A stretch of DNA of 64,000 nt from an uncultured Nitrososphaeraceae archaeon (GTDB lineage: Archaea; Thermoproteota; Nitrososphaeria; Nitrososphaerales; Nitrososphaeraceae), in NCBI GenBank assembly GCA_963779615.1, contig CAVZZA010000003.1:64001-128000 (forward strand), given 5' to 3'. Both the position numbers and the translations under genes were made by a program. The notes under the pieces are model-generated. The model was not told the origin of the DNA, searched no databases, and saw nothing but the letters and a program-made list of their open reading frames with translations. Of the stretch, positions 11,108-43,119 are shown one piece after another (positions within the stretch are counted from its first letter, which is position 1; each line of letters opens with the position of its first letter).

Positions 11108-12664
11108 TCACTTTGATATTGATAGGTTTGTCCTCCTTTTTAAAATGAGCCCCGATGCAATGGATATGGTTGATATCAAAGTAGCTGTTAGAAAGATCAG
11201 GTTGTAAGATAATAATGATGGATATGATCTTCCACCAACTTCATTCACAGAGTCTTGGTATGTTTGCATGAATATTGAGGCAATCACAGGTCCGATTGAA
11301 CTTCCAATTAGCACAATTACAATCGATATACCAACGGATACACCACTAAATTGGTGTGGAGTGTATTGCAACACGATATTAAATGCGCCTACATTTATCA
11401 ATGACAGCCCTGCAGATATCATCACCAAATTAACAGCAATCATGAATTCCGTTGCATGAAAAACAAACAGGACGAAAAAACCAATTGTTGTGATAATGCT
11501 CCCCGCTATTACTGGTATAAAGTTACCAATTTTAGCTACAATGAATCCGGAAGAAGGAGCAAATACCAAAAACACTACCATAAAGGGCAATTGGATATTG
11601 GCACTGGTTATTGCGTCCCCGCCAAATCCAATGGGCGGAGGACTAGTTACTAAAATTGGAATAGTTTGATACACCATAAACATTGTGATACCAAAAGTTA
11701 GAAGAATGATGTTCGTAGGAAGAAGGATTTTATTTGCTATTAAATTAAGTGGGATTAACGGCGTTGGTACTTTCCGCTCTATGACAATAAAAAGGATTGA
11801 GGAGACTATTGTTAATGTGGCTAATGAAACTAAAACAGCAAAAGTATAGGACGAATCAACTGAACCCCTGTTGATATCACTATTAGTATTTGCAAAATAG
11901 GTCAGCGTAAGTAAAAATGAAGTTATTGTTATTGCCAAGGTTACAGTTCCCTTTAGGTCCATGCTATATTCATTACTGTTAACAATTTTTTGCGACTCTG
12001 AGGTGTTCTTTATTGTATGATTGGCATCTATACTTTGCATAAAATCTGCTTCCCCATTTCTTTTTTCCTCCGCTTTTGAGCGGTCATCGTTTTGGACAAA
12101 TTGTTTGATTATTACCCAAAGAATAATAGCAACAGGTATTATAGTAAAAAATGTAGACTGCCATCCGAAATTTTTAATGATAGTGCCACCTATCGCTATG
12201 CCCACTACTGAACCTGCAGCAAACATTGAACTAAATATACCAACACTTATTGCAAGCTTATGTACTGGAAATTGATCTCTTATAATCCCAAATGCTATCG
12301 GAAACATGGATATACCCAAGCCTTGGATAACCCTAGCAGTAAGAAGAACATAGATATTAGTCGATAGCCCACCAAGAACAATTCCTATGATATAGACAAT
12401 AAATATAATCAACACCATTTTCTTTTTGCCATAAACATCAGATAGTTTTCCGGCAATTGGAGTCATTACCGCGCCTGAAATAAGGTATGCCGTAAGTATC
12501 CACGATGAAGTGCTATACGAAATATCAAAATCTTTAATGATCTGGCCAATAGCTGGTATTAACATAGTCTCACCATACATAGTAATTAAAATGGTAGACC
12601 CCAAAATGGCAAGTGTTATCCATGTGGATGCCTGAATTTTTTCAGAAGGTTTTGCCACATTCAT
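11108..12664 (-). CDS. MFS transporter, DHA2 family
   Basis: 518 aa; GKLSDVYGKKK motif A, ARVIQGLG, ~14 TM. Confidence 0.9.
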   Translation of the reverse strand: MNVAKPSEKIQASTWITLAILGSTILITMYGETMLIPAIGQIIKDFDISYSTSSWILTAYLISGAVMTPIAGKLSDVYGKKKMVLIIFIVYIIGIVLGGLSTNIYVLLTARVIQGLGISMFPIAFGIIRDQFPVHKLAISVGIFSSMFAAGSVVGIAIGGTIIKNFGWQSTFFTIIPVAIILWVIIKQFVQNDDRSKAEEKRNGEADFMQSIDANHTIKNTSESQKIVNSNEYSMDLKGTVTLAITITSFLLTLTYFANTNSDINRGSVDSSYTFAVLVSLATLTIVSSILFIVIERKVPTPLIPLNLIANKILLPTNIILLTFGITMFMVYQTIPILVTSPPPIGFGGDAITSANIQLPFMVVFLVFAPSSGFIVAKIGNFIPVIAGSIITTIGFFVLFVFHATEFMIAVNLVMISAGLSLINVGAFNIVLQYTPHQFSGVSVGISIVIVLIGSSIGPVIASIFMQTYQDSVNEVGGRSYPSLLSYNLIFLTATLISTISIASGLILKRRTNLSISK

Positions 12665-13431
12665 CGATCACCTTCCGCCTTTAATATGTCCTAATACCTA
12701 TCGGTTACTTTTGCCATGAGGGTGAAGAAGAAGATGATGTGAAAACACATTTCCTAGCCAGTTCCTAAATGTATGTGTCATTTTTAAATCCCCATCTTAC
12801 CCTGTAACATTTCACTATTCTCTTCTATGTTAGAACCATCCAAGCCTAAAAATTAAGACTTTTCCGTTGTTGCAGGTATTTCCCCTTATTAATAATACAA
12901 TGTTTTTATGCTGATTACATTTGCATTTATCTTAACAAATAAAACCATCATTCATTTGTTATTGGGTTCAACCGTATTTTAGCAATTAGAAATACAATAG
13001 CAAAATTACAGATTTAATGTAAAATCTTACTTGACAAAAAAGAAGAGAATCAACGGGTTTCCGACTTCTTTTTGTTTTGTATCTTAATCTATTGTTAAGG
13101 CCACAAGGAACAACAAACAGCACAAGCAGATGATTCAGCAGGAGGATATCCGTTAGTTCAAACAGGTGGTACTACTGGAGGAAAAATAGGATTAGTCAAA
13201 CATAACCAATTATGAATATTTTTTTCATTTATTTTTTATTTTCGTATCTTTCAGGCGGATATAATAGTCATGGTTGTTAAAATACCTTTTAATATAAAAA
13301 TTCAGTAGTAGAGTTATCTTACTAGTAGCATAAAATAATTCAATGGCCTTTATTGAATAAGTTTACTTTTACCATTAATATTATATTATACGATAAATAA
13401 TTTGACATTTATCTTGATTTTTGTCCACTTG

Positions 13432-14371
13432 GACCCTATACCAAAACTATCATTCTATAAACAGTTATCCCCAGGAGAACGGTACTAACTCAAGATAGTT
13501 TTCCATCTTTTCATATCATTTGAATATCTTTCTAAACCTGTTGTGCCATGAGTTGGTTCTCTCCACAACCCATGTTCTTGCAGGATGTTCTTTGCGATTT
13601 GAGGTTTTTTCTTTTCCGTATCTTTCTTGACCTCTCTTTTTTTTCTCCTGTACGGTAAATGTAGCACATATCCTCGTTTTGCAATTGCTTGTTCTTCGGG
13701 CTTGGACTATATGCTTTATCAAGACAAGGGTGTTGCAGTTTTCTTTTTCTTCCCGTCTTTGTTTTAGCATATGGAATACATCTTTAGCAACCGCATTATC
13801 CACTACATCTGTTACTAATTTAACATCATTCATACTTGCAGATGACATGACAGCTGAGAGCGGGATACCTTCCTTATCTGTTAAAACATGCTTATTTGTG
13901 CCCAGCTTGCCTCTGTCGGCGGGATTGCTTCCAGTCATCTCCCCCCCCTAAATGCGACTTTATGGATACGCTGTCAGGTGAGCACCAGGTCCACTTGATG
14001 CCCACTAGATTGTCATAGATTTTTAGCACCCTTATCCATATTTTCCTAAAGATGTCAAGTTTAATCCATTCCTGAAATCGCCTATGGCATGTCGAACCAG
14101 ATCCATTTCCAGGATGGAACACCTTCCATCGGCATCCTGTTCTTAGAATGTATAGGACACCAGCAAGTACTTTTTTAAATGGTATGATTGGACGACCAAC
14201 AGTTTTAGATTGTTTCTCTTTGGGTCAAACGATTCTAAAATTATCCCACAATTCATCTGAAATCTTGCATATAGTGCAAATATCCTTTTTATCCTCCTCC
14301 TTCTGGATGCAGGCCCCACGTTGGCAGTGATGATAACAAGCTATACTTCTATCGAATTTTGGGATAGGCTC
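13432..14371 (-). mobile_element. IS5-family (IS427-like) element, frameshifted transposase
   Basis: GSTCHRRFQEW, TGSNPADRGKLG.KHVLTD.EGIPL, WVVERTNSWHNRFR; 15-bp TIR GAGCCTATCCCAAAA (14357-14371 rc) vs GACCCTATACCAAAA (13432). Confidence 0.88.
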
Positions 14372-17678: not shown

Positions 17679-19187
17679 ATGCAGGTAGGAAAAATCTACA
17701 GAAATTCCTCATTAGACATAACAAATGAATTAGAAAAGGCCGAAATAAAGTGGGTAAGACTAAATTTTTGCGATCCTTTGGGTTATCTTCATCAAATTTC
17801 TGTCAACAGCAAGGAGATTACAGAGGATGCATTTAAGCAAGGACTACCAAGGCTCGATGGCAGCTCCATAAAAGGATTTAAGGAGATCTATGAGTCAGAT
17901 ATGCTGCTCAAACCCGACCCTTCCACTTTTGCCATATTGCCAGACTATTTTGACAAAAATCACCATCAGACTAGGGACTGCACATATCCTTCAATGGCGG
18001 CACGCATGTTTGTCGATATTTATGAGGGATTCGGTGGAAAAAGGTATTCTAGGGATAGCAGATATATCGCACAAAAAGCCGAAGAGGTATTGAATGACAA
18101 AGGCTTTGAGAAGAGTTATTGGGGGCCCGAGTTGGAATTTTTTGTTTTCAACAAAATTACTCTCCTACCAAATCCCATGTCCTCCGTAAATTGTTCTGGT
18201 GGGTCGGGATACTCTATTGAATCCTCCGAGGCACCGTGGAACTCCTCCAATGACAGTGGGTACACCATTCCATTTAAGGGAGGCTACTTTCCTGCTCCCC
18301 CAGCAGACAGTTTGACAGATTTAAGAGATGAAGTTTCGGAAACTTTGCAAGAGTTTTTTGGAATAAGAGTTGATGCCCATCACCACGAGGTCGCGACAGC
18401 CGGACAATGTGAGATTCAGATGGTATATGATGAGCTTACACACATGGCAGACAACGTAATTACCTACAAGAAGACAGTAAAGGAAGTCGCGGCCAAACGC
18501 CATATGATTGCAAATTTTATGCCAAAACCAATAGCGCTTGATAATGGTTCTGGTATGCATGTGAGCCAGAGCTTGTGGACAAAAAGGAAGCATGGAAATG
18601 ACATGAATGTGTTCTTTGATATTTCCGACGAATACGCAGAGCTAAGCCAAACCGCCCATTACTATATTGGAGGATTAATAGAGCATGCAAGGTCGCTTTG
18701 CGCTATAACAAACCCCACAACCAATTCCTACAGGAGATTAGTCCCTGGGTATGAAGCCCCAATAAATGTGGCATGGAGTAAAATGAATAGATCGGCCAGT
18801 ATAAGAATTCCTGCCCACTTCAAAAACATGGAGAGGCAGAAAAGAATAGAGTACAGAACACCTGATCCAAGTTCAAACATCTACCTTGTGGAGGCTGCGT
18901 TGTTGTTGGCAGGTCTTGATGGGATAAACAAAAAAATTTCGCCACCAGACCACATAGATAAGGACATTTACAAACTTACAGAACAACAAAAAAGAGAAGG
19001 AGGAATCAAGAAATTACCCACTTCATTATTGGACGCTATTGAGTCTTTGGAATCAGACAATGAGTTTTTGAAGCCAGTTTTTACAAATGACTTCCTTGAA
19101 ACATACTTCCAGATCAGAAAAGATGAGTATACAGCAGTTGCAGCAGTTCCCTCACCGAGAGAATTTTATATGTACGGGAATATCTAG
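17679..19187 (+). CDS. glnA: glutamine synthetase type I
   Basis: LDGSSI.GF..IYESDM, GGYFP, HHEVATAGQCE, FMPKP...DNGSGMH, NSYRRLVPGYEAP, NRSASIRIP, RIEYRTPDP. Confidence 0.96.
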   Translation: MQVGKIYRNSSLDITNELEKAEIKWVRLNFCDPLGYLHQISVNSKEITEDAFKQGLPRLDGSSIKGFKEIYESDMLLKPDPSTFAILPDYFDKNHHQTRDCTYPSMAARMFVDIYEGFGGKRYSRDSRYIAQKAEEVLNDKGFEKSYWGPELEFFVFNKITLLPNPMSSVNCSGGSGYSIESSEAPWNSSNDSGYTIPFKGGYFPAPPADSLTDLRDEVSETLQEFFGIRVDAHHHEVATAGQCEIQMVYDELTHMADNVITYKKTVKEVAAKRHMIANFMPKPIALDNGSGMHVSQSLWTKRKHGNDMNVFFDISDEYAELSQTAHYYIGGLIEHARSLCAITNPTTNSYRRLVPGYEAPINVAWSKMNRSASIRIPAHFKNMERQKRIEYRTPDPSSNIYLVEAALLLAGLDGINKKISPPDHIDKDIYKLTEQQKREGGIKKLPTSLLDAIESLESDNEFLKPVFTNDFLETYFQIRKDEYTAVAAVPSPREFYMYGNI

Positions 19188-19805
19188 TTAAAGACATGTC
19201 GTATCCTAAAGATGTATTGGAGACTAAAGGAAACCTTCTGAAGGAATCTTCTGCTTCTTCTTATTCTCCTATTCTAACAGACAATATTTCGAATTCTCAT
19301 TATTATGACAAGACAAAGATAATCCTAGACGCAAGAAAAGCATTTGATGGGCTTATCCCATATTCAGGATTAGGCGCCAATTCAACGAATGATTATTTTT
19401 CATCTATTGATTTTATTGGCGGTGGAAAACTTAAAGCAGATGAAGACTACAGCGATGTGGATCTATCAGTAACGATTGAGAGCGTTATTTATATGTATGG
19501 GAATGTCTAGTTAAAGATATGTCGTATCCTAAAGATGTATTGGAGATTAAAAGAAACCTTCTGAAGGAATCTTCTGCTTCTTCTAGTAGTATTTTAGATA
19601 ATATTTCGAATTCTCATTATTATGACAAGACAAAGATAATCCTAGACGCAAGAAAAGCATTTGATGGGCTTATCCCATATTCAGGATTAGGCGCCAATTC
19701 AACGAATGATTATTTTTCATCTATTGATTTTATTGGCGGTGGAAAACTTAAAGCAGATGAAGACTACAGCGATGTGGATCTATCATTAACGATTGGAGGA
19801 CGTTA
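19165..19805 (+). repeat. diverged tandem duplication (~320 bp x2) spanning glnA 3' end, spacer and glxD 5' end
   Basis: Copy 1 19165-19487, copy 2 19488-19805; long identical core, several substitutions and a net 6-nt indel. Confidence 0.92.
19196..19510 (+). pseudogene. chimeric truncated duplicate: N-terminus of FMN subunit fused to the GlnA C-terminal peptide
   Basis: First ~94 aa nearly identical to 19519 ORF; ends YMYGNV vs GlnA YMYGNI. Confidence 0.85.
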
Positions 19806-20988
19806 CTCAAATAATGTTATAACATCAGACATACCATTTTTTGTTTCTGGTATGAGCTATGGTTCATTGAAGCTTCCTGCAAAAATAGCATTGCACATAG
19901 CATTAAACAAACTTGCTATTGAAGATGGGATAAGAGTAATAATGAATACTGGTGAAGGTGGAGCATTGCCATGGGAAATCTATGGCTCGGATACTAAAAA
20001 TAATAGTATAATGGAATATGCTGAAAGGCTGCTTAGGGAGCACAATTTAGACAGTATAGATAGAGAACAACTTTTCCAAAGGCATTATCCTTTGGTAGTT
20101 CAATATGCGTCAGGCAGATTTTGGAGAGACCCTAACTACTTGTTGATACCGGATGCGATAGAAATCAAGATAGGTCAGGGTGCAAAAATAGGACATGGAG
20201 GAATGTTACCAGGTTCAAAGGTAACGGAGCTCGTAGCTGAGAATCGTGGAATACCTCCTTATAGATCAGCTTACTCGCCTTCAAGACATTTAGATATCTT
20301 GGGGCCTGAGGATTTGGTTGCCAAGATCCTTGAATTAAGAGAACTCACTGATTGGAAGGTTCCAATAATTGTAAAGGTAGGGGCTTCAAGAGCTTATGAT
20401 GACATTCAGATAATACTCAAATCTTATGCAGATTCTGCTGCCATAGATGGAATTGTGGGAGGTACTGGTGCGGCTCCATGGGAGATTCGAGATATTGTTG
20501 GAATAAATACAATACCTTCGATAAGGTTGGGAAAAAATGCAATAAATGATTATTATTTGAATAACGAGACAAATGAGTTTAAACTACTCGCCCATGGTGG
20601 TATTTGGGATTCGAAACGAATTGCAAAATGCATTGCTCTTGGAGCAAATGGAGTAGGCATAGGTACAGGGTTTCTCATATCAATGGGGTGTACATTGATT
20701 CAAGACTGTTATACTAATACTTGTCCTGCAGGCTTAACCGGCTCATTTGAAAAGCTTGATATAGAATTCAGTGTAAAGAGAATAATCAATTACATTAAGG
20801 GAACAATGATCGAACTGCAAAATATTGTAGGTTCATTAGGGAAGAAAAGAATCAAAGACCTTGGCCGAGAGGATCTTATTGCTACTGATGAAATATCAAG
20901 CATAGTATCGGGACTCTATAACAATAAGAATGTAAAGGCAGAGGATCATAGAATGTATGGAAAAAAAATTGCTGAGTTAAAAAATTGA
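19519..20988 (+). CDS. glxD: FMN-binding glutamate synthase subunit (GlxD/MgsC/GltS type)
   Basis: GMSYGSL, NTGEGG, QYASGRF, EIKIGQGAKIGHGGMLPGSKV, DGIVGGTGAAP, 3Fe-4S CX5CX4C (GCTLIQDCYTNTCPAG). Confidence 0.88.
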   Translation: MSYPKDVLEIKRNLLKESSASSSSILDNISNSHYYDKTKIILDARKAFDGLIPYSGLGANSTNDYFSSIDFIGGGKLKADEDYSDVDLSLTIGGRYSNNVITSDIPFFVSGMSYGSLKLPAKIALHIALNKLAIEDGIRVIMNTGEGGALPWEIYGSDTKNNSIMEYAERLLREHNLDSIDREQLFQRHYPLVVQYASGRFWRDPNYLLIPDAIEIKIGQGAKIGHGGMLPGSKVTELVAENRGIPPYRSAYSPSRHLDILGPEDLVAKILELRELTDWKVPIIVKVGASRAYDDIQIILKSYADSAAIDGIVGGTGAAPWEIRDIVGINTIPSIRLGKNAINDYYLNNETNEFKLLAHGGIWDSKRIAKCIALGANGVGIGTGFLISMGCTLIQDCYTNTCPAGLTGSFEKLDIEFSVKRIINYIKGTMIELQNIVGSLGKKRIKDLGREDLIATDEISSIVSGLYNNKNVKAEDHRMYGKKIAELKN

Positions 20989-22145
20989 ATCCCAAAGAGA
21001 AATTTATTATAAGGTCTTCGATCCTAGAATTAGCAGAAACTGGTACTCCTCGCAGTATTTCAATAGATGAAAAAATAAGAATGGATCACAAAGAAAGAGG
21101 AAATGAAAATACAACAACAAACATCTGGGATTGCATAACTGCGTTGGGTGCACAATTATCAAGGCCCCCCTATGATCCATATCGGGAGATAATAAATCTT
21201 GGAATATCTGTAGGCAGAAGACAATGTCCAACTAAGGTTATTTTATCTATGCCCCTGATGATTTATGATAACGATAGGAAGATAGAAGAAGCGCCTTTGG
21301 AGGCTCTACATGTTGCATTGAATTGGCTTGCTGTTAATGACAATATAAATTTAGGATTGGTTTCAGAAAATAGAGTAAACAATAGTAGAAAGTACCCACA
21401 TTTTAAACGAATAAGCGAAAGATCAATAGGGGAGGAGGATTATGATTCTGAAGGACTTGTATTACAATACAACAGTGGCAAATCCCTACAATTTCTAACA
21501 GAGATGAGGAAAGAATTCAGCGGCCCAATTCTTGTAGAGATTGATGATGATTTTGAGAGATACATTGGATCATTGCTGGATGCAGGAGCTGATGGAATTA
21601 TTGCAGATACTGTTAAAATAACAAACAAAGAGAGGTACCAAGGAAAACATGCAGTAACAGTAATACACAAGGTACGATGCGCTATAAACCAATACTATGC
21701 TGGAAAAGAAAATGATGGTACGTTATTAATGGTTGCAGGGGACTTGAATAATACAGGCAGAATTGTAAAAGCTGCTGCATTGGGTGCGGATATTATTGGA
21801 TACTCCACCAGTTTGTTGATTGCAAATGCTGCAATTCATCATGATAACCCATCCAACATAAATGCAATATCAGAAAGGATCTGTAGACACATTCAGGCCA
21901 CCAAAGGAGAACTTAAAGGAGTACCTGCCGCATTAGGATACAGTAATTTCTATAACATATCACCTGCGGATTTGCGTACCTCTAGTATCGAGGCAAGTTT
22001 ACAGGCGGATATTGCCATAGAAGGAGTGGATAAAACTTATCGCCAAATAATTGAGGAATCGACAGGTGAACATGCCATAGAAGAAGGAATGGAAATTGAT
22101 AAAGATAAAAATCAGAAACTTAGTTGCATATCTATTGATAAATAG
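20985..22145 (+). CDS. degenerate second glutamate-synthase FMN-barrel paralogue
   Basis: GlxD-like N-terminus WD...LGAQLSRPPYDPYRE and C-terminal VKAAALGAD, but lacks NTGEGG, EIK.GQGAK and the Cys triad; overlaps upstream stop. Confidence 0.72.
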   Translation: MNPKEKFIIRSSILELAETGTPRSISIDEKIRMDHKERGNENTTTNIWDCITALGAQLSRPPYDPYREIINLGISVGRRQCPTKVILSMPLMIYDNDRKIEEAPLEALHVALNWLAVNDNINLGLVSENRVNNSRKYPHFKRISERSIGEEDYDSEGLVLQYNSGKSLQFLTEMRKEFSGPILVEIDDDFERYIGSLLDAGADGIIADTVKITNKERYQGKHAVTVIHKVRCAINQYYAGKENDGTLLMVAGDLNNTGRIVKAAALGADIIGYSTSLLIANAAIHHDNPSNINAISERICRHIQATKGELKGVPAALGYSNFYNISPADLRTSSIEASLQADIAIEGVDKTYRQIIEESTGEHAIEEGMEIDKDKNQKLSCISIDK

Positions 22146-22167
22146 TTAAGGAGGGGACGGAAGGAAC

Positions 22168-23025
22168 ATGTGTGGCATTTGCGGAATTATATTAAAAGAT
22201 CACAATCCAAACTTTTCAATCGGTGCTCTGCTTTATCAGATGATGGAAGGCCAGCAGGTAAGAGCTCAAGATAGTGCAGGCATAGCCATTTTTAATAATG
22301 GAAATAGAGGTAATAACGATTCACTATATAATCTTACCTACCTTATGAAATCTCCTACTGGATACGAGTTGAGAGAAGAAAAAAGGCCTTTAAATGAACA
22401 AGATCGACGTGCTTCCAGATTAATCAAGGATGATCGGGTTTCTATAATAGGTTGTTCAAAAGAAATGAAGTTGGTCAAAGATGTAGGCCTTGTAAGAGAT
22501 CTTGATAAAAAATATGATATAAAATCAATGCAAGGATCTCACGGTATTGGACATTTAAGAATAGCAACGAGCAGTAGAGTTGACATGCATAATGCCCATC
22601 CATTCAGTACTACAGTCATGCCCGATATAGCAGTTGTGCATAATGGAGAAATCACAAATTATTCCAAATTAAAGAATTCGCTTGAGATTCAAGGATACCC
22701 TTTCTATTCTAATTGTGATTCAGAGGTCATAGCTGTTTTTCTTGCTGACCAGTTGTTAAAGCATGGAGACATAGAAAGGGCACATAATGAATTTATTCAA
22801 AAAGCCGATGGGCCATTTACCTATATTGCTGCTACAAATCATTCATTATCATTGATAAGGGATAGATTTGGAACAAGAAAGGGGATTGTAGGATACAATC
22901 CAGGAGGAGAGGGCCATCCTGCATTCTGGGCAATGGCAACGGATCTATCTGCATTAGATATTGTCGGAGCTAACGAAGATGTGAAAGCAGCGTCACCAGG
23001 CAAATCACTAATTTTCACAGTATAA
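22168..23025 (+). CDS. glxB: class II glutamine amidotransferase subunit (GlxB/MgsA/GltB1 type)
   Basis: N-terminal MCGICG nucleophile, DSAG, GIGHLRIAT, AHPF, VHNGEITNY, DSE; GGAGG RBS upstream. Confidence 0.88.
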   Translation: MCGICGIILKDHNPNFSIGALLYQMMEGQQVRAQDSAGIAIFNNGNRGNNDSLYNLTYLMKSPTGYELREEKRPLNEQDRRASRLIKDDRVSIIGCSKEMKLVKDVGLVRDLDKKYDIKSMQGSHGIGHLRIATSSRVDMHNAHPFSTTVMPDIAVVHNGEITNYSKLKNSLEIQGYPFYSNCDSEVIAVFLADQLLKHGDIERAHNEFIQKADGPFTYIAATNHSLSLIRDRFGTRKGIVGYNPGGEGHPAFWAMATDLSALDIVGANEDVKAASPGKSLIFTV

Positions 23026-23065
23026 TAAATAAATTAATAAAGCCATATCTAAAAAACAAAGACAA

Positions 23066-23995
23066 ATGTGTTATACGTTAGATATCGATGAATTACGAGC
23101 AATAGTAAAGGACATAGGCTCAAAGGTATCTAATCCAGATGCACAATTTGAAAGTGTCAACAACGCTTTTGAGAAGAATTTTGGAACAAAACTTCCTTAT
23201 GGATTAAAACGCGCATCTATAGAAAAATTTGGGGATGTTGCAAGTTCTCCCCTAATAATGGAAAGGGCAATTAACTCCATAATAAAAAAAAAGGTGGCAG
23301 CGGGTGAAACTAAAATCATACTAAAAAATCCAAAAGCCCTTTACAGAATAGGGATACTTGGTTATGATGAGACTATAAAATTAGACATGACAGTGGAAGG
23401 AAATGTTGGCAATTTTTTTGGCGCATTTTGCAACTTTGATGGAACCTGGATAGTTAATGGAAACGCCGAGAATGGATTGGCGGACAAGGGGTACAAAGGA
23501 AAAATAATTGTGGAAGGGTTTGCCACAGAACTTGCATGCCAAAACAATCAAGCAACCAAATTCAGTAATGGTGTCGATCTCTTGATTAAAAAAGGGTGTA
23601 TGGAGAGAGCTATGGGTCAAGCCAGGGGAGGAAGGTTGGTAACTTTTGGCGCAGGATACAATTCTGGTCTGTACATGTCAGGGGGAGTATTGCTTAATTT
23701 GGGCCTACCGGGAGAACTGTTTGGCCCTGGAATGGTTGGTGGCGTTATTTATTCTCCTGAAGGAACTACTGCAGCAGACGGTGCGGTTATCAATAAATTA
23801 AAGGTGGAAGATTATTCAATTATTAAAGAAACACTACGGGTATTTGAAAATGAGTTACGGATAGAGCAACTAGATAATTTATCCATGGAAAACCCGACAG
23901 TGTATTTAACCAACAATGTTATTAAAGATAATCAAAAGTATAACATAAGTGACTTTATCAAAATAGTCCCAAATATAACCAATTCTCATAACTAG
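23066..23995 (+). CDS. glxC: GXGXG beta-helix glutamate synthase subunit (GlxC/MgsB/GltB3 type)
   Basis: VEGNVGNFFGAF, VNGNAENGLA, GAGYNSGLYMSGG, GPGMVGGVIY. Confidence 0.82.
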   Translation: MCYTLDIDELRAIVKDIGSKVSNPDAQFESVNNAFEKNFGTKLPYGLKRASIEKFGDVASSPLIMERAINSIIKKKVAAGETKIILKNPKALYRIGILGYDETIKLDMTVEGNVGNFFGAFCNFDGTWIVNGNAENGLADKGYKGKIIVEGFATELACQNNQATKFSNGVDLLIKKGCMERAMGQARGGRLVTFGAGYNSGLYMSGGVLLNLGLPGELFGPGMVGGVIYSPEGTTAADGAVINKLKVEDYSIIKETLRVFENELRIEQLDNLSMENPTVYLTNNVIKDNQKYNISDFIKIVPNITNSHN

Positions 23996-24107
23996 TGATT
24001 AGTGACAAAGCTATCCTCAAATTCACGGATGACGTATGATCAATATCCGGTCTTTAAGGCTGAACAGATGTTAAAACGGCTTTAATAAGCGCCTGTGAAC
24101 TTGATTG

Positions 24108-24546
24108 TCATAACAGCCGAAAATCCTCTTTCACAGTAATCAAAACTATATGTGTATTGGTTCTGTCAACATATGGTAACGATAGGTCCCTCTTGACAAA
24201 GTCACTTAATTCCCTTCGATTCCTAAATTTAGCAACTATTATCATATCCGTCAATCCAGTGATATCATAAACTGCACAAACATTTGGGAGCTTTGAAATG
24301 TGTTTCTCAACATCGTTTATTTTATTTTTGATTGCAGTTATTTCAATTACCGCCGTCAAATCAAATCCTAACTTTACATGGTCCACTATTGCAGAATAAG
24401 ATTTTATGATATTGTCTTTTTCCAATCTTGATATCCTGTTAAGTACCTGTGGGTGGAGAGACCCCTATTTCAAATGCTATTTTTCGGTAAGAACTCCTAG
24501 CATCTGCCAATAGCCTTTTTAATATCTTTGTGTCTGTCTCATCCAT
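24108..24546 (-). pseudogene. Lrp/AsnC transcriptional regulator with +1 frameshift in the HTH
   Basis: MDETDTKILKRLLADARSSYRKIAFEIGVSPPT then shifted VLNRISRLEKDNII...YDITGLTD; 439 nt = 3n+1, extra base at 24446-24447. Confidence 0.88.
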
Positions 24547-24998
24547 TAATGTGATTTGAATTGTTAACTTTATAAACATAAAAACAACTCCACTTTTTTT
24601 AATAAATATTAGTCAAAAACAATAACAAACATCGCATAATTATCAAAAAGCATAATTGGATATGCCTGAAAAAAGATGCAAGTACACCACCACCGTCAAA
24701 TGCTGTTGCTAATGCATCCCTATATATCAAAATAGGGAAAGGTGTCAATCTTGGCGACTGCTCGACTTGCCTTAACTTGTATTTTTTTTATTGCGGGTCA
24801 GAATATTTGATATCCTTGTAAATCTGTCACTATCAGTTGGAATATTTAGCAATCAATACGCGCTTAACCCAAAACTGCGCCTAAATGACAGAACAATATT
24901 ATTTGAATTATCAAAACAATGCTTGATTTGGCGGTATTGCTTTGATGGAGATAATGGTTGCTCCAGGAGTAGAAATCTGTTATATGGGACAACCTTTA

Positions 24999-39612: not shown

Positions 39613-41601
39613 TTATTCCCCATTTTTCGCTTTGTCGTCTTTATGCTGGTTATCTGAATTAACGTATATCAAATTTATGAGCAATGGGGATAGTGTGGGG
39701 GGAGATGCCCTAATCTTTTTGGTTGCAATGTTATAGTAATGATCGACTAACTCGTTAAAGTGGTGGATCTGTCTGGCCATTAAACTTATGAAAGAAACTG
39801 CGGTTTGGCATTGTGAAGAAAGATCCTGCTTTTGCCTGTTTAATTCACTCGTTTCTCTCTTTGTTTTTTCCAGTGTCTGCTGTTGTTCTTTTATCGATGA
39901 GTTTATGTTCCCCAATTTTCTCAGATTCTCTATAAATGATTTCCAGTGTTCTGCTCTGTTACTGTTGTTGTTACTGTTACTGACATTTACGGCTTTGCTG
40001 CCCTTGTCTGTGCTGCCTTTGCTGCACTCGCCTTGAGGATCCAACTGTAACTTGCCACTTGCGGTTTCTGTCACCAATTGGCTGATGCTTATGATGTCAC
40101 TTTCGCTTATTCCGTTTTGGAAGAGATAATGCAAGGTTGTGCCTACAAATGGTGCTGATTGCATTGCCAGCCTATTGTTGTTCAGCTCTTGCTCTGCCTT
40201 AAAAAGCTCTTTTCTTTTTTCCTTGACTTTGTCTTCCAACAAAAACTTGTCATGGTAGTTTTCCTCAATGTCCCTTATGAACAAGGACACTGCATCTTGT
40301 GATGATAGGAAATCCTTTCTTGTTCCGGCAATTTCCAAAATGGTGTTCCATATCTGTTTTAGCTCTGTTAGTCCAAAATTCATTGCCTGCAGTTGCCCAT
40401 ACACACCCATCGTTTGCCTGTGCATGCTTACCTGAGATTCTAAATGTGAAACCAGGTTTTGCAAAGAACTTTTTTGTTCAAAGAGTTCATTGACCTCTTT
40501 CTGGTTTTCCGTTATTTGCAATTTGAGGGACAGTGAATTTTTATACGCCCTTATTATTTCGGCTGCGTCATAACCCTTCTCCTTAAAGTCATGGATTAGC
40601 TTGGCTAGTTCCTTTATGCCCTCATCCATGTTAATGTCATAGGTATCCCTTAACACTTTTTTTAGGTCTGCAAATATCTGAAGGTAGGTCATGGTGTTTT
40701 TTTCCCTCTTGTTTGTTATGGCAAGATTCTCCTCTGCCTGAGTCCTTTGCAACTCTAGTTCCTTTATTTCCTCCATTGCCTTTTTTCTGTATTCCTCAGC
40801 CTTGGAGTATTCTTTTTTCATTTGGGCAATACACAAAGAAATTCGGGAAACAAACGGCATTTCAGTTTCATCATTTGGATAGGGGGAGGAAGAGGGGGAG
40901 GCTGTTTGTTTTGATTTGGCATCAGGATGGTTTTCCTTTACCTGCGTGAGAGAGTTAAGACCGTCATCATTATCCTCCCGTGAACTGAAACCTGGTGTTT
41001 TGCCTGTTTTCTGGGGTTGCTGATATTGTGGTTGCCGGGTGGTGGTTGTGATGGTGTTATCCAGTCCACTTGCACTTAGCTTCGGTTGGGCATACCTGTT
41101 TCCATCCTTGTCAAAACCATCATCATCGACATCATAGTTGCCGTTTGGGGAAAAGGGTGACTTGTTTTTGTTGTTGGGGGAAGTGCCGTAAAAGTCAAAC
41201 AAGTCTTTAATCCATGCTGGTACGGTTGAGGGTGCAAGACCTTGCCTTTTGCAGTTCTTATAGACGTCCTCTATAAAGGAGGCGAACTCGTCGTAGTTGC
41301 CCTCGTATTTGTTATCGATGCCATCATCATCACCTTCATGTATGTCAAGTCTTTTCAGTATACCTATCATCCTAAAGCCCTGGGCGCATTGCCCAATCGA
41401 TATCTCCGACTTCCTGACCTTGATCGAAAACTCCCTCAGCGTGTCAATGTCGGGTGTCCCGATTTCTCCTTTCCAGTCGTTTATCAAATAATGCACCTTG
41501 CCTTTTGAGACATTGGTTTCTGAGGCTATTTGGTCCATCGATTTGCCGTTTAGGTAGCCTTGTATCACTAGCGATATGCCGGTTTGTTTTGAACTTGACA
41601 T
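39613..41601 (-). CDS. N-terminal HTH + long coiled-coil protein of unknown function
   Basis: 662 aa; YLNGKSMDQIASETNVSKGKVHYLI HTH, disordered linker, several heptad-rich stretches; no Walker A seen. Confidence 0.8.
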   Translation of the reverse strand: MSSSKQTGISLVIQGYLNGKSMDQIASETNVSKGKVHYLINDWKGEIGTPDIDTLREFSIKVRKSEISIGQCAQGFRMIGILKRLDIHEGDDDGIDNKYEGNYDEFASFIEDVYKNCKRQGLAPSTVPAWIKDLFDFYGTSPNNKNKSPFSPNGNYDVDDDGFDKDGNRYAQPKLSASGLDNTITTTTRQPQYQQPQKTGKTPGFSSREDNDDGLNSLTQVKENHPDAKSKQTASPSSSPYPNDETEMPFVSRISLCIAQMKKEYSKAEEYRKKAMEEIKELELQRTQAEENLAITNKREKNTMTYLQIFADLKKVLRDTYDINMDEGIKELAKLIHDFKEKGYDAAEIIRAYKNSLSLKLQITENQKEVNELFEQKSSLQNLVSHLESQVSMHRQTMGVYGQLQAMNFGLTELKQIWNTILEIAGTRKDFLSSQDAVSLFIRDIEENYHDKFLLEDKVKEKRKELFKAEQELNNNRLAMQSAPFVGTTLHYLFQNGISESDIISISQLVTETASGKLQLDPQGECSKGSTDKGSKAVNVSNSNNNSNRAEHWKSFIENLRKLGNINSSIKEQQQTLEKTKRETSELNRQKQDLSSQCQTAVSFISLMARQIHHFNELVDHYYNIATKKIRASPPTLSPLLINLIYVNSDNQHKDDKAKNGE

Positions 41602-42119: not shown

Positions 42120-43119
42120 GCTTTGTTGCATAACTAGTAATCAAAAGACTATTTCCATTTGTTTATGCCTTTCCCCTAAGCACGTTATACAAATATACTT
42201 TCATTATCATCTCTTTCACCATGTTTTGAAGCTTGGTAGCAGACACATATTCTCCATAGGTTTTCTTCATAGAAGAGAATGCAGTCTCAGCCATCCATCG
42301 CTTCCCATACCTTCTTTTCTTTTTCCATTTGGGTAGATCATCTGTTGTTTGCAATTTGGCCTCTCTGTTCCTTATCTTGTTGTTTTTGGGTGAGATGATG
42401 GAACTCTTACTTACCCTTATTCCTGGCAGAATGTTTTTCTCTTGAAGACACTTGAAATTCTCATTGCCATTATAGGCCCCATCTGCCAGGACTGTTTTGA
42501 TATTGGCAGCGGCGTTATTTTGCTTTAACATGCGGTCAACCAATCCACACAACACTTTTCCATCATGCACCTTTTCATCAGCCACTTCTAAAGCAAGGAT
42601 TTCCTTGGTCTTTATGTTCACTGCAAAATGTATTTTGAGACAGCCTTTCTTTTTTTAACAAACCACTTGTCCCTTAGCCATTGGCCCCTGTTTGTTACCT
42701 TGATGCCAGTGCTATCTACTGCTATGATAACATCATCATCATCCAATTCACTACTGCTTCTACCACTATCAATGTCAAGGTTGTTTTTCCTTCTGTTGAT
42801 TTGTGAATAGCTGGGATGGCTTGGCAGGTTCTTTCCCGTTGTTGCCTTTATGATCCCTTCTGTTTGCCTATAAGGCAGGTGAAAGTAAACCCTGATGCAA
42901 CCAATAAAAAGAATAAGGGAATTTGGATACCTGTACTTTCTGCCTCCCTTCTTTTCATCCATCTCTTCAACCTCGGTATCACGCCATAAATCCAGAAAGT
43001 CACAGGCAAATAGAATCTCTCCCCTCTTCTTACCATGGACCGGTTATAGGAAGGCCAGTCAGTCAATAATGTTAGTCTAATTTAATCCCAGCTAAATAGA
43101 TTGAGTCATGCAACAAAGC
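42120..43119 (-). mobile_element. IS5-family (IS903 group) element, frameshifted transposase
   Basis: 16-bp TIR GCTTTGTTGCAT(A/G)ACT; DWPSYN.S.VRRGE, PYRQTEG, AVDSTGIK, VHDGK, LADGAY, RWMAETAFS. Confidence 0.9.

Follow-up and report, generated by a model that had tools for sequence, protein, structure and literature searches.

Ammonia-oxidising archaea (AOA) are held to assimilate ammonium through glutamate dehydrogenase (GDH) plus glutamine synthetase (GS), with no glutamate synthase (GOGAT). What, then, is encoded by a cluster in which a GS gene is followed, on the same strand, by the separate parts of what resembles a GOGAT? The cluster in question lies on contig CAVZZA010000003.1 of assembly GCA_963779615.1, from an uncultured member of the Nitrososphaeraceae, within a stretch of 64,000 nucleotides (positions 64,001 to 128,000 of the contig) that we analysed as a whole and refer to as the window. 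We consider it probable that the locus is a five-gene operon for ammonium assimilation, comprising a dedicated type I GS (GS-I) and a GOGAT of four proteins that would draw its electrons from free ferredoxin.

The gene cluster itself has already been published and is an ordinary member of a known feature of AOA. A GOGAT gene set was reported for Ca. Nitrosocosmicus arcticus Kfb (NARC_80135-80138), where the enzyme is called 'archaeal type' and the reaction NADPH-dependent; that paper places the set also in Ca. N. oleophilus MY3, and states that N. exaquare and the remaining AOA lack it (Alves et al. 2019, PMC6657660). The account is repeated by Wright and Lehtovirta-Morley 2023 (PMC10432482), and a 2025 paper describes the pathway as confined to Nitrosocosmicus and select Nitrosopumilaceae (PMC12097351). 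An earlier note on this DNA, made from the sequence alone, had allowed that the operon might prove to be an already described core feature of AOA; it is indeed already described, and its occurrence is patchy rather than core. The counts of distribution given below may overlap with supplementary tables of the published papers.

The gene cluster, its host and its glutamine synthetase

The host genome (3.17 Mb in 5 contigs, 92.5% complete; G000) contains an archaeal amoA, by which the organism is an AOA, as had been supposed from the window alone, and database relatives of the cluster proteins carry the label Candidatus Nitrosocosmicus. All five genes of the cluster are intact open frames on the same strand, spaced tightly along the cluster by an 8-base gap, a 4-base overlap (between the FMN and X386 genes), 22 bases and 40 bases. 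The full set claimed in the earlier note, namely glnA, an FMN gene, a second barrel, an amidotransferase, a GXGXG gene and a convergent Lrp gene, is present with strand and order as given there. The five genes are as follows.

17679-19187, + strand: glnA, type I GS, a predicted module-specific third GS paralogue (502 aa; TIGR00653, PF00120, PF03951)
19519-20988, + strand: FMN-binding glutamate synthase subunit with a [3Fe-4S] cysteine motif and no Fer4 motif (489 aa; PF01645)
20985-22145, + strand: X386, a 386-aa (beta/alpha)8 barrel protein, putative counterpart of the GltB central domain (from hhalign, motifs and model)
22168-23025, + strand: Ntn-type (class II) glutamine amidotransferase subunit (285 aa; PF13522, PF13537; starts MCGICGI)
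23066-23995, + strand: GXGXG (beta-helix) subunit (309 aa; PF01493)

The product of glnA scores 530.1 bits against TIGR00653, the GS-I model (cut-off 429.15), and 217 against TIGR03105, the type III model, which is below the cut-off of 469.6. Its DGSS, GGYFP, HHEV, NGSGMH, PGYEAP, NRSASIR and R-x-PD motifs are intact, whereas three GmaS references differ from it at DGSS, GGYFP, HHEV, NGSGMH and PGYEAP. The earlier reading of LDGSS, GGYFP, HHEV and GYEAP in the translation was correct, and the proposal of a true ammonium enzyme is borne out by the TIGR00653 score and the motifs, which identify the cluster GS as an ammonium-type GS-I and not a GmaS.

This gene is one of three for GS in its genome. 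Among relatives without GOGAT, two GS copies are found in each of the five genomes compared. Four of six GOGAT-positive genomes (G000, G005, G002 and G219) have three full copies; of the other two, G019 has two, and G327 has two full copies plus two fragments. The full copies of G327 (C6:199051-200178 and C8:491462-492589), of which one belongs to the cluster and the second lies on a different contig, have identical scores and sit on zero-length branches of the tree. Cluster GS copies form a clade of their own (support 99) and are 38-50% identical to the other GS copies compared. This separate clade, together with the extra copy in GOGAT carriers, argues that the cluster GS is a module-specific paralogue. 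A GDH is also present in the genome.

Subunits of the glutamate synthase

The FMN subunit matches PF01645 at 270.7 bits (cut-off 20.4), possesses the GEGG, GQGAK-G-GG and GGTGAAP motifs, and finds the solved GltS and GltB structures at E 6e-32 to 6e-34. It aligns with residues 907-1168 of Azospirillum GltB, including the segment C-TLIQD-C-YTNT-CP, such that the [3Fe-4S] ligand motif C-x5-C-x4-C-P after the barrel (CTLIQDCYTNTCP) matches that of the solved Azospirillum protein (CIMVRQCHSNTCP). The CX5CX4C cysteines are kept in 12 of 12 AOA orthologues. They are absent from all three MgsC references, which come from bona fide N-methylglutamate clusters on plasmids (one with mgdABCD alongside), and from two clade mates of MgsC, which have a cysteine-free insert in place of the motif. 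The CxxCxxCxxxC motifs typical of Fer4 number none in the same 12 AOA subunits and two each in G042, G091 and P0243, and a Pfam scan of the FMN subunit gave no Fer4 match.

A maximum-likelihood tree of 51 FMN domains, which excludes one fragment and one row of great length, unites the 12 AOA rows (support 99/98) as sister to seven uncultured relatives that have in common an insert of about 35 residues (100/100), and the next proteins outward are three of about 430 aa. The MgsC clade, made up of the three references plus P0280 and P0320 (100/100), excludes the AOA clade, and constraining the two together costs 43.5 lnL (p-AU 0.003, for a grouping named after the first tree had been seen). One automatic source calls many AOA FMN subunits 'methylamine---glutamate N-methyltransferase subunit C' (mgsC), a label that is probably wrong in view of the motifs and the tree. 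The 'glxBCD-type' description in the earlier note fares no better: a glxBCD/MgsABC identity was considered and rejected on the kept cysteines, the position outside the MgsC clade in the very phylogeny that had been proposed as a check, the different gene order and the lack of mgd or sox genes among the families common to at least 4 of 23 loci.

The second barrel, X386, matches no Pfam family at E<=0.001 (PF01645 appears only at E 0.0067), and a phmmer search against PDB sequences returned nothing meaningful (best E 0.024, a nicotinamidase). It does match the neighbouring FMN gene, at 25-29% identity. When a profile of 19 X386 orthologues was searched against 1.84 billion representatives, 77 proteins were found at E<=0.001, 11 of them at E<=1e-30, and the weaker matches include proteins of 704-792 aa in which an FMN domain is followed by Glu_syn_central (Pfam, 44.8-67 bits). 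The order FMN then central is common to the AOA cluster and these fusion proteins. The X386 profile aligns by hhalign with the second half of P0278, an FMN and central fusion, at 96.7% probability (E 3.5e-10, 296 columns), and that half bears PF04898 at 58 bits. X386 is, moreover, collinear at four motifs with the central domains of two bacterial GltB proteins, as in the pairs GAQLSRPPYDPYRE against FAQVTNPPIDPIRE and KGELKGVPAALGYSNF against KGILKVMSKMGISTYQ. It has neither GGTGA nor GQGAK, two motifs that the FMN domain possesses. A first AlphaFold2 model, built from 19 sequences, reached a pLDDT of 60.3 and gave generic Foldseek matches (TM 0.35-0.40); its replacement, built from 28 sequences, reached 82.8 and is a TIM barrel of the FMN-oxidoreductase type, and the matches that Foldseek lists for it are all FMN-type TIM barrels, none of them a GltS chain. 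From this indirect evidence we conclude that X386 is most likely the counterpart of the GltB central domain, as a diverged paralogue of the FMN domain.

The remaining two subunits are more readily named. The amidotransferase matches PF13522 (62.9 bits) and PF13537 (51.5 bits) and has a Cys directly after the start Met, and the GXGXG subunit matches PF01493 at 45.9 bits (cut-off 32.5), and aligns weakly with residues 1269-1432 of the GltB model. Both are about 28% identical to MgsA/B and to the archaeal type alike, and so do not discriminate between them. By these assignments, all four GltB domains (FMN, central, amidotransferase and GXGXG) are encoded as separate genes, and motifs and phylogeny mark the predicted enzyme as a redox GOGAT, neither MgsABC nor the classical archaeal type.

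Comparison with known systems sharpens this placement. The set of Ca. N. arcticus and Ca. N. oleophilus is the same four-gene glutamate synthase in another species of the same genus, with nothing essential that differs: the named Ca. N. arcticus match is 68% identical to X386, the named Ca. N. oleophilus match is 82% identical to the FMN subunit, and synteny is the same across the genus genomes compared. Only a junction duplication, an Lrp frameshift and the lack of fixABCX beside the operon set the present genome apart. A central-domain subunit, the missing Fer4/GltD module and a dedicated GS do not figure in the accessible part of the Alves account (PMC6657660). Ferredoxin-dependent GltS (Fd-GltS; PDB 1LLW/1OFD) and the GltB of NADPH-GltS (1EA0, 2VDC, 6S6S) agree with the AOA set in their four domains and in the [3Fe-4S] motif, and the likeness to Fd-GltS extends to the GltD partner, none having been found in the AOA genome either. 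Those enzymes are, however, single polypeptides of about 1500 aa in the order amidotransferase-central-FMN-GXGXG, whereas the AOA have four polypeptides in the order FMN-central-amidotransferase-GXGXG, at an identity of about 30% and with a very diverged central-like protein.

Classical archaeal-type split GltS also consists of separate genes, has no GltD and may adjoin a GS. For instance, in G042, a deep-branching genome of the same class, genes for GS and an amidotransferase are accompanied by one for a GXGXG-Fer4-FMN protein of 710 aa, which has two CxxCxxCxxxC motifs and lacks a central domain. In this type the two CxxCxxCxxxC motifs are fused before the FMN domain and a central domain is lacking, whereas the AOA type has no Fer4 motif, possesses a central-domain gene and falls in a separate clade. 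F420-dependent forms, FGltS(I/II), have been proposed for archaeal-type GltS (Susanti and Mukhopadhyay 2012, PMC3448663), but no FrhB/FdhB-like gene is conserved beside the AOA cluster. Finally, MgsABC with GmaS, as on the Ponticoccus alexandrii plasmid NZ_CP047169.1 (with mgdABCD), resembles the AOA cluster in its three homologous split subunits, its neighbour from the GS superfamily and its lack of a reductase subunit. It differs in that MgsC is without Fe-S cysteines, the ammonium-site motifs of its type III or GmaS-like partner are altered, the genes run in the order amidotransferase-GXGXG-FMN and lack one for a central domain, and mgd genes, which are sarcosine-oxidase-like, are found close by. 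No mgd or sox genes were found among the 25 proteins of the window or among the families common to at least 4 of 23 distinct AOA loci.

Distribution, neighbourhood and expression

Of 34 species genomes of the genus, 15 contain the FMN gene at E<1e-50, one of them in a form broken by six stops. When 401 genomes of the class were sampled evenly, orthologues of at least 66% identity turned up in 13: the present genome, five more of the genus, six from three further genera of the family, and 1 of 223 from the sister family. Species-representative genomes were also scanned, with narrow patterns that returned only AOA, and gave 38 loci, all assigned to Nitrososphaerales, eight of which come from seven metagenome-assembled genomes (MAGs) of Nitrosopumilaceae type. 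The spread across AOA that the earlier note had left to be surveyed comprises under half of the genus's species, along with a part of the other Nitrososphaeraceae and of the Nitrosopumilaceae. Each of the five gene families, X386 included, is represented in all 23 loci with flanks; in G327 the GXGXG gene is an 83-codon ORF only.

In both the FMN and the GS clades, Nitrososphaeraceae are split from Nitrosopumilaceae as in the taxonomy, with path lengths like those of core GS. Because the family split follows taxonomy, old presence with repeated loss fits at least as well as recent acquisition, and the earlier note's description of the module as acquired is doubtful. The G+C content of the operon (0.37-0.39, against 0.33-0.34 in the AT-rich flanks) is not read as a sign of foreign origin. 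Estimates of dN/dS against G012, beyond which dS is saturated for more distant pairs, are 0.04 for GS, 0.125 for the FMN subunit, 0.235 for X386, 0.139 for the amidotransferase and 0.099 for the GXGXG subunit, which makes X386 the least constrained of the five. Twenty public runs hold part of the stretch, eight of them RNA libraries. Three soil metatranscriptome studies supplied contigs, mostly 95-99% alike, that extend over all five genes and bridge the glnA-FMN, FMN-X386, X386-amidotransferase and amidotransferase-GXGXG junctions, a hint of operon expression.

As the earlier note had stated, the window scan finds an unusual split glutamate synthase with no GltD and no ferredoxin module alongside: among the 25 window proteins there is no GltD, ferredoxin or sarcosine-oxidase-like gene. 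PF14691 (GltD) has no match in the whole genome at its 92.5% completeness, and is found in 9 of 14 control genomes. Nor is there a FrhB-, Hdr- or GltD-like gene among the families common to at least 4 of the 23 loci. Genes for ETF-beta and ETF-alpha (fixAB) do recur in the neighbourhood: 10 of the 23 distinct loci have them no more than about 4 kb from GS, nine from Nitrosocosmicus and one from a Nitrosopumilaceae MAG. A 626-aa FixC-FixX fusion accompanies them in eight, the other two running off the fetched stretch. The arrangement fixA-fixB-fixCX (such as L047, 11563-15640) comes in two forms about 60% identical, co-directional in six loci and divergent in four. ETF-alpha occurs in all 15 GOGAT-positive genomes of the genus, and FixABCX is described as coupling NADH oxidation to reduction of both ferredoxin and quinone.

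Other genes near individual clusters may be mentioned. At L119 a dicluster ferredoxin ORF lies near GS, with a homologue on another contig of the present genome; it was not used as evidence. L055 (G219, Nitrosopumilaceae) holds a 604-aa nitrite/sulfite reductase (11932-13746; NIR_SIR and ferredoxin-like half domains) 1.7 kb from the cluster GS, and L121 a GDH gene 2.8 kb from it; both look like small nitrogen-assimilation neighbourhoods. The Lrp gene adjoins the cluster in 17 of the 23 loci.

Four further features of the present locus concern the glnA-FMN junction and the Lrp gene. The junction duplication and the Lrp frameshift had escaped the earlier note.

19165-19795, + strand: tandem duplication of about 320 bases (copy 1 at 19165-19487, copy 2 at 19488-19795; repeat families D1 and D2)
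19196-19510, + strand: 104-codon ORF made by the duplication, copying the FMN-gene start and ending in the last codons of glnA
24108-24546, - strand: convergent Lrp/AsnC regulator gene, frameshifted (PF01037, 51.4 bits, for 24108-24425)
24439-24579, - strand: ORF with the HTH part of the Lrp gene, in a frame other than that of the PF01037 part

The duplication covers both the stop of glnA and the FMN gene's start, its copies being 95% identical with a 6-base indel, and the 104-aa ORF repeats some 94 N-terminal residues of the FMN subunit. It is peculiar to this genome in comparison with 15 related loci. At this place the contigs of a public DNA run are only about 320 bases long, leave 19136-19402 uncovered and come with no reported joints; the 5% divergence between the copies argues against a simple assembly artefact as the source of this predicted duplication. 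Comparison of the Lrp gene with its G005 orthologue, an intact protein of 145 aa, points to a one-base insertion near 24446-24447, which puts the HTH-like N-terminus and the C-terminal domain in different frames; in G005 they share one frame. Either the gene is a real pseudogene or the break is an assembly indel.

Upstream, a DDE transposase fragment (PF01609; 13516-13938, - strand, E 2.9e-4) precedes some 1.7 kb without convincing genes ahead of glnA, the place where relatives hold fixABCX; this suggests local rearrangement. A second such fragment is at 42163-42962 (- strand, E 7.5e-17), and a 662-aa ORF without any Pfam family (39613-41601, - strand) occupies the most G+C-rich stretch of the window (0.42). 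Scans of the window for tRNAs and Rfam families gave no match. A bacterial-type scan, unsuited to archaea, counted 37 promoter-like sites where 27.5 were expected, and 5 terminator-like sites where the expectation was 4.9.

The proposed route and its rivals

Taken as a route, the operon would work as follows. GS would make glutamine from glutamate, ammonium and ATP, and the amidotransferase subunit would free ammonia from glutamine. The FMN subunit would join this ammonia to 2-oxoglutarate and reduce 2-iminoglutarate with FMNH2, its FMN being re-reduced singly, electron by electron, via the [3Fe-4S] cluster. X386 and the GXGXG subunit would hold the assembly together, like their GltB counterparts. 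In Fd-GltS it is ferredoxin that feeds the [3Fe-4S] cluster. Since neither GltD nor a built-in ferredoxin domain is present, a free low-potential ferredoxin, as in the Fd-GOGAT of plants and cyanobacteria, would by analogy with Fd-GltS be the most economical and likely donor, and the printed NADPH dependence has no basis in the genes. The presence of fixABCX beside the operon in many relatives suggests a supply line, in which FixABCX may keep the ferredoxin reduced; we offer this link from FixABCX through ferredoxin to GOGAT as a hypothesis. The Lrp-family neighbour probably controls the operon.

A number of observations weigh against this scheme. With regard to the electron supply, ETF-alpha occurs also in 9 of 19 GOGAT-less genomes of the genus, so that fixABCX is not specific to GOGAT; in the present genome it lies on another contig than the operon; and its occurrence in soil AOA has been on record since 2012 (PMC3379541). 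The reaction has been printed as NADPH-dependent, although no evidence for this label is visible in the accessible parts of the publications (PMC6657660, PMC10432482), and literature searches found no biochemical report on activity, cofactor or complex for this clade. With regard to X386, PF04898 gives no match to the protein itself, and a direct hhalign comparison with whole GltB reaches only 7.6% probability over 31 columns, inside the central domain. Its best GltS match by VIA-align is the FMN domain (Z 18.4, 6S6S residues 812-1189), in a method that gives one alignment per chain and thus does not judge the central domain separately; this fits paralogy with the FMN domain without singling out the central domain. 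X386 has also retained a G..G-R...K-A-A-LGA pattern that resembles the flavin-phosphate loop in the FMN domain, so that a second flavin site may exist. With regard to function in the living cell, cluster genes are interrupted in several relatives: GS and the amidotransferase in G031 (L050), the FMN gene by six stops and the amidotransferase in G032 (L061), GXGXG in G028 (L052) and the GS N-terminus in G029 (L051), reflecting either gene decay or long-read indel errors. The Lrp gene is frameshifted in the present genome, and the RNA-library contigs may be carried-over DNA or separate transcripts, leaving a single transcript unproven.

Some of these points would be accommodated by a real GOGAT with another donor, in which X386 binds a second flavin that takes hydride from NAD(P)H or F420H2, or in which an unlinked reductase docks on the [3Fe-4S] site. 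In favour of this, the barrel modelled for X386 is of the FMN-oxidoreductase type (by VIA-align, Z 21.6 to IDI-2 and 21.0 to flavocytochrome b2) with the glycine-rich loop just described, the publications do say NADPH-dependent, and dedicated F420 input subunits have been proposed for other split archaeal GOGATs (PMC3448663). Nevertheless, we regard this as rather unlikely: X386 lacks the GGTGA and GQGAK motifs and shows no nucleotide-binding fold, is collinear with the flavin-free central domain of GltB and is the least constrained gene of the cluster, and no FrhB-, Hdr- or GltD-like gene is among the families common to at least 4 of the 23 loci.

The module might instead be a decaying or silent relic in this strain, with assimilation left to GDH and the two core GS copies. 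Its patchy occurrence, the stops and frameshifts in G032, G031, G028 and G029, the frameshifted Lrp gene, the junction duplication and the transposase fragments upstream in the window could all be so explained, and GDH is present. Against this stand five intact open frames, dN/dS of 0.04-0.24 and near-identical contigs in the RNA libraries of three studies, and the breaks in relatives may be assembly errors; a relic seems improbable. Less credible still is an MgsABC/GlxBCD-like enzyme that assimilates methylamine or another amine with its GS partner, for despite the automatic names, the MgsC proteins that are the best plasmid matches (aligned from residue 45), the split architecture with no reductase subunit beside a GS-family gene and the equidistant amidotransferase and GXGXG subunits, it is contradicted by the cysteines, the separate clades, the intact GS-I, the gene order with its extra central-domain subunit and the want of mgd or sox genes in the window and among the families shared across the 23 loci.

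What is added here to the published cluster, read as a ferredoxin-fed GS-GOGAT operon, is a sharper description, namely a predicted redox GOGAT in four domain subunits with its own GS and no NADPH or Fer4 module, and the hypothesis of ferredoxin and FixABCX. More tentatively, and with appreciable doubt, the AOA and a few uncultured relatives may possess a distinct, undescribed class of GOGAT, with four separate subunits, no built-in or dedicated reductase, ferredoxin reduced by FixABCX and a GS paralogue of its own, ancestral to both families and lost many times. Abby et al. 2020 infer that GOGAT was lost in the ancestor of AOA (PMC7554672); an ancestral GOGAT with many losses would, if true, contradict such a loss before the AOA radiation. 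Little is yet understood of the means by which ammonia oxidisers assimilate the substrate they oxidise, and a high-affinity GS-GOGAT in some soil AOA, with its cost in ATP and reductant, bears on their niche, in terms of low ammonium and possible extra sources of energy.

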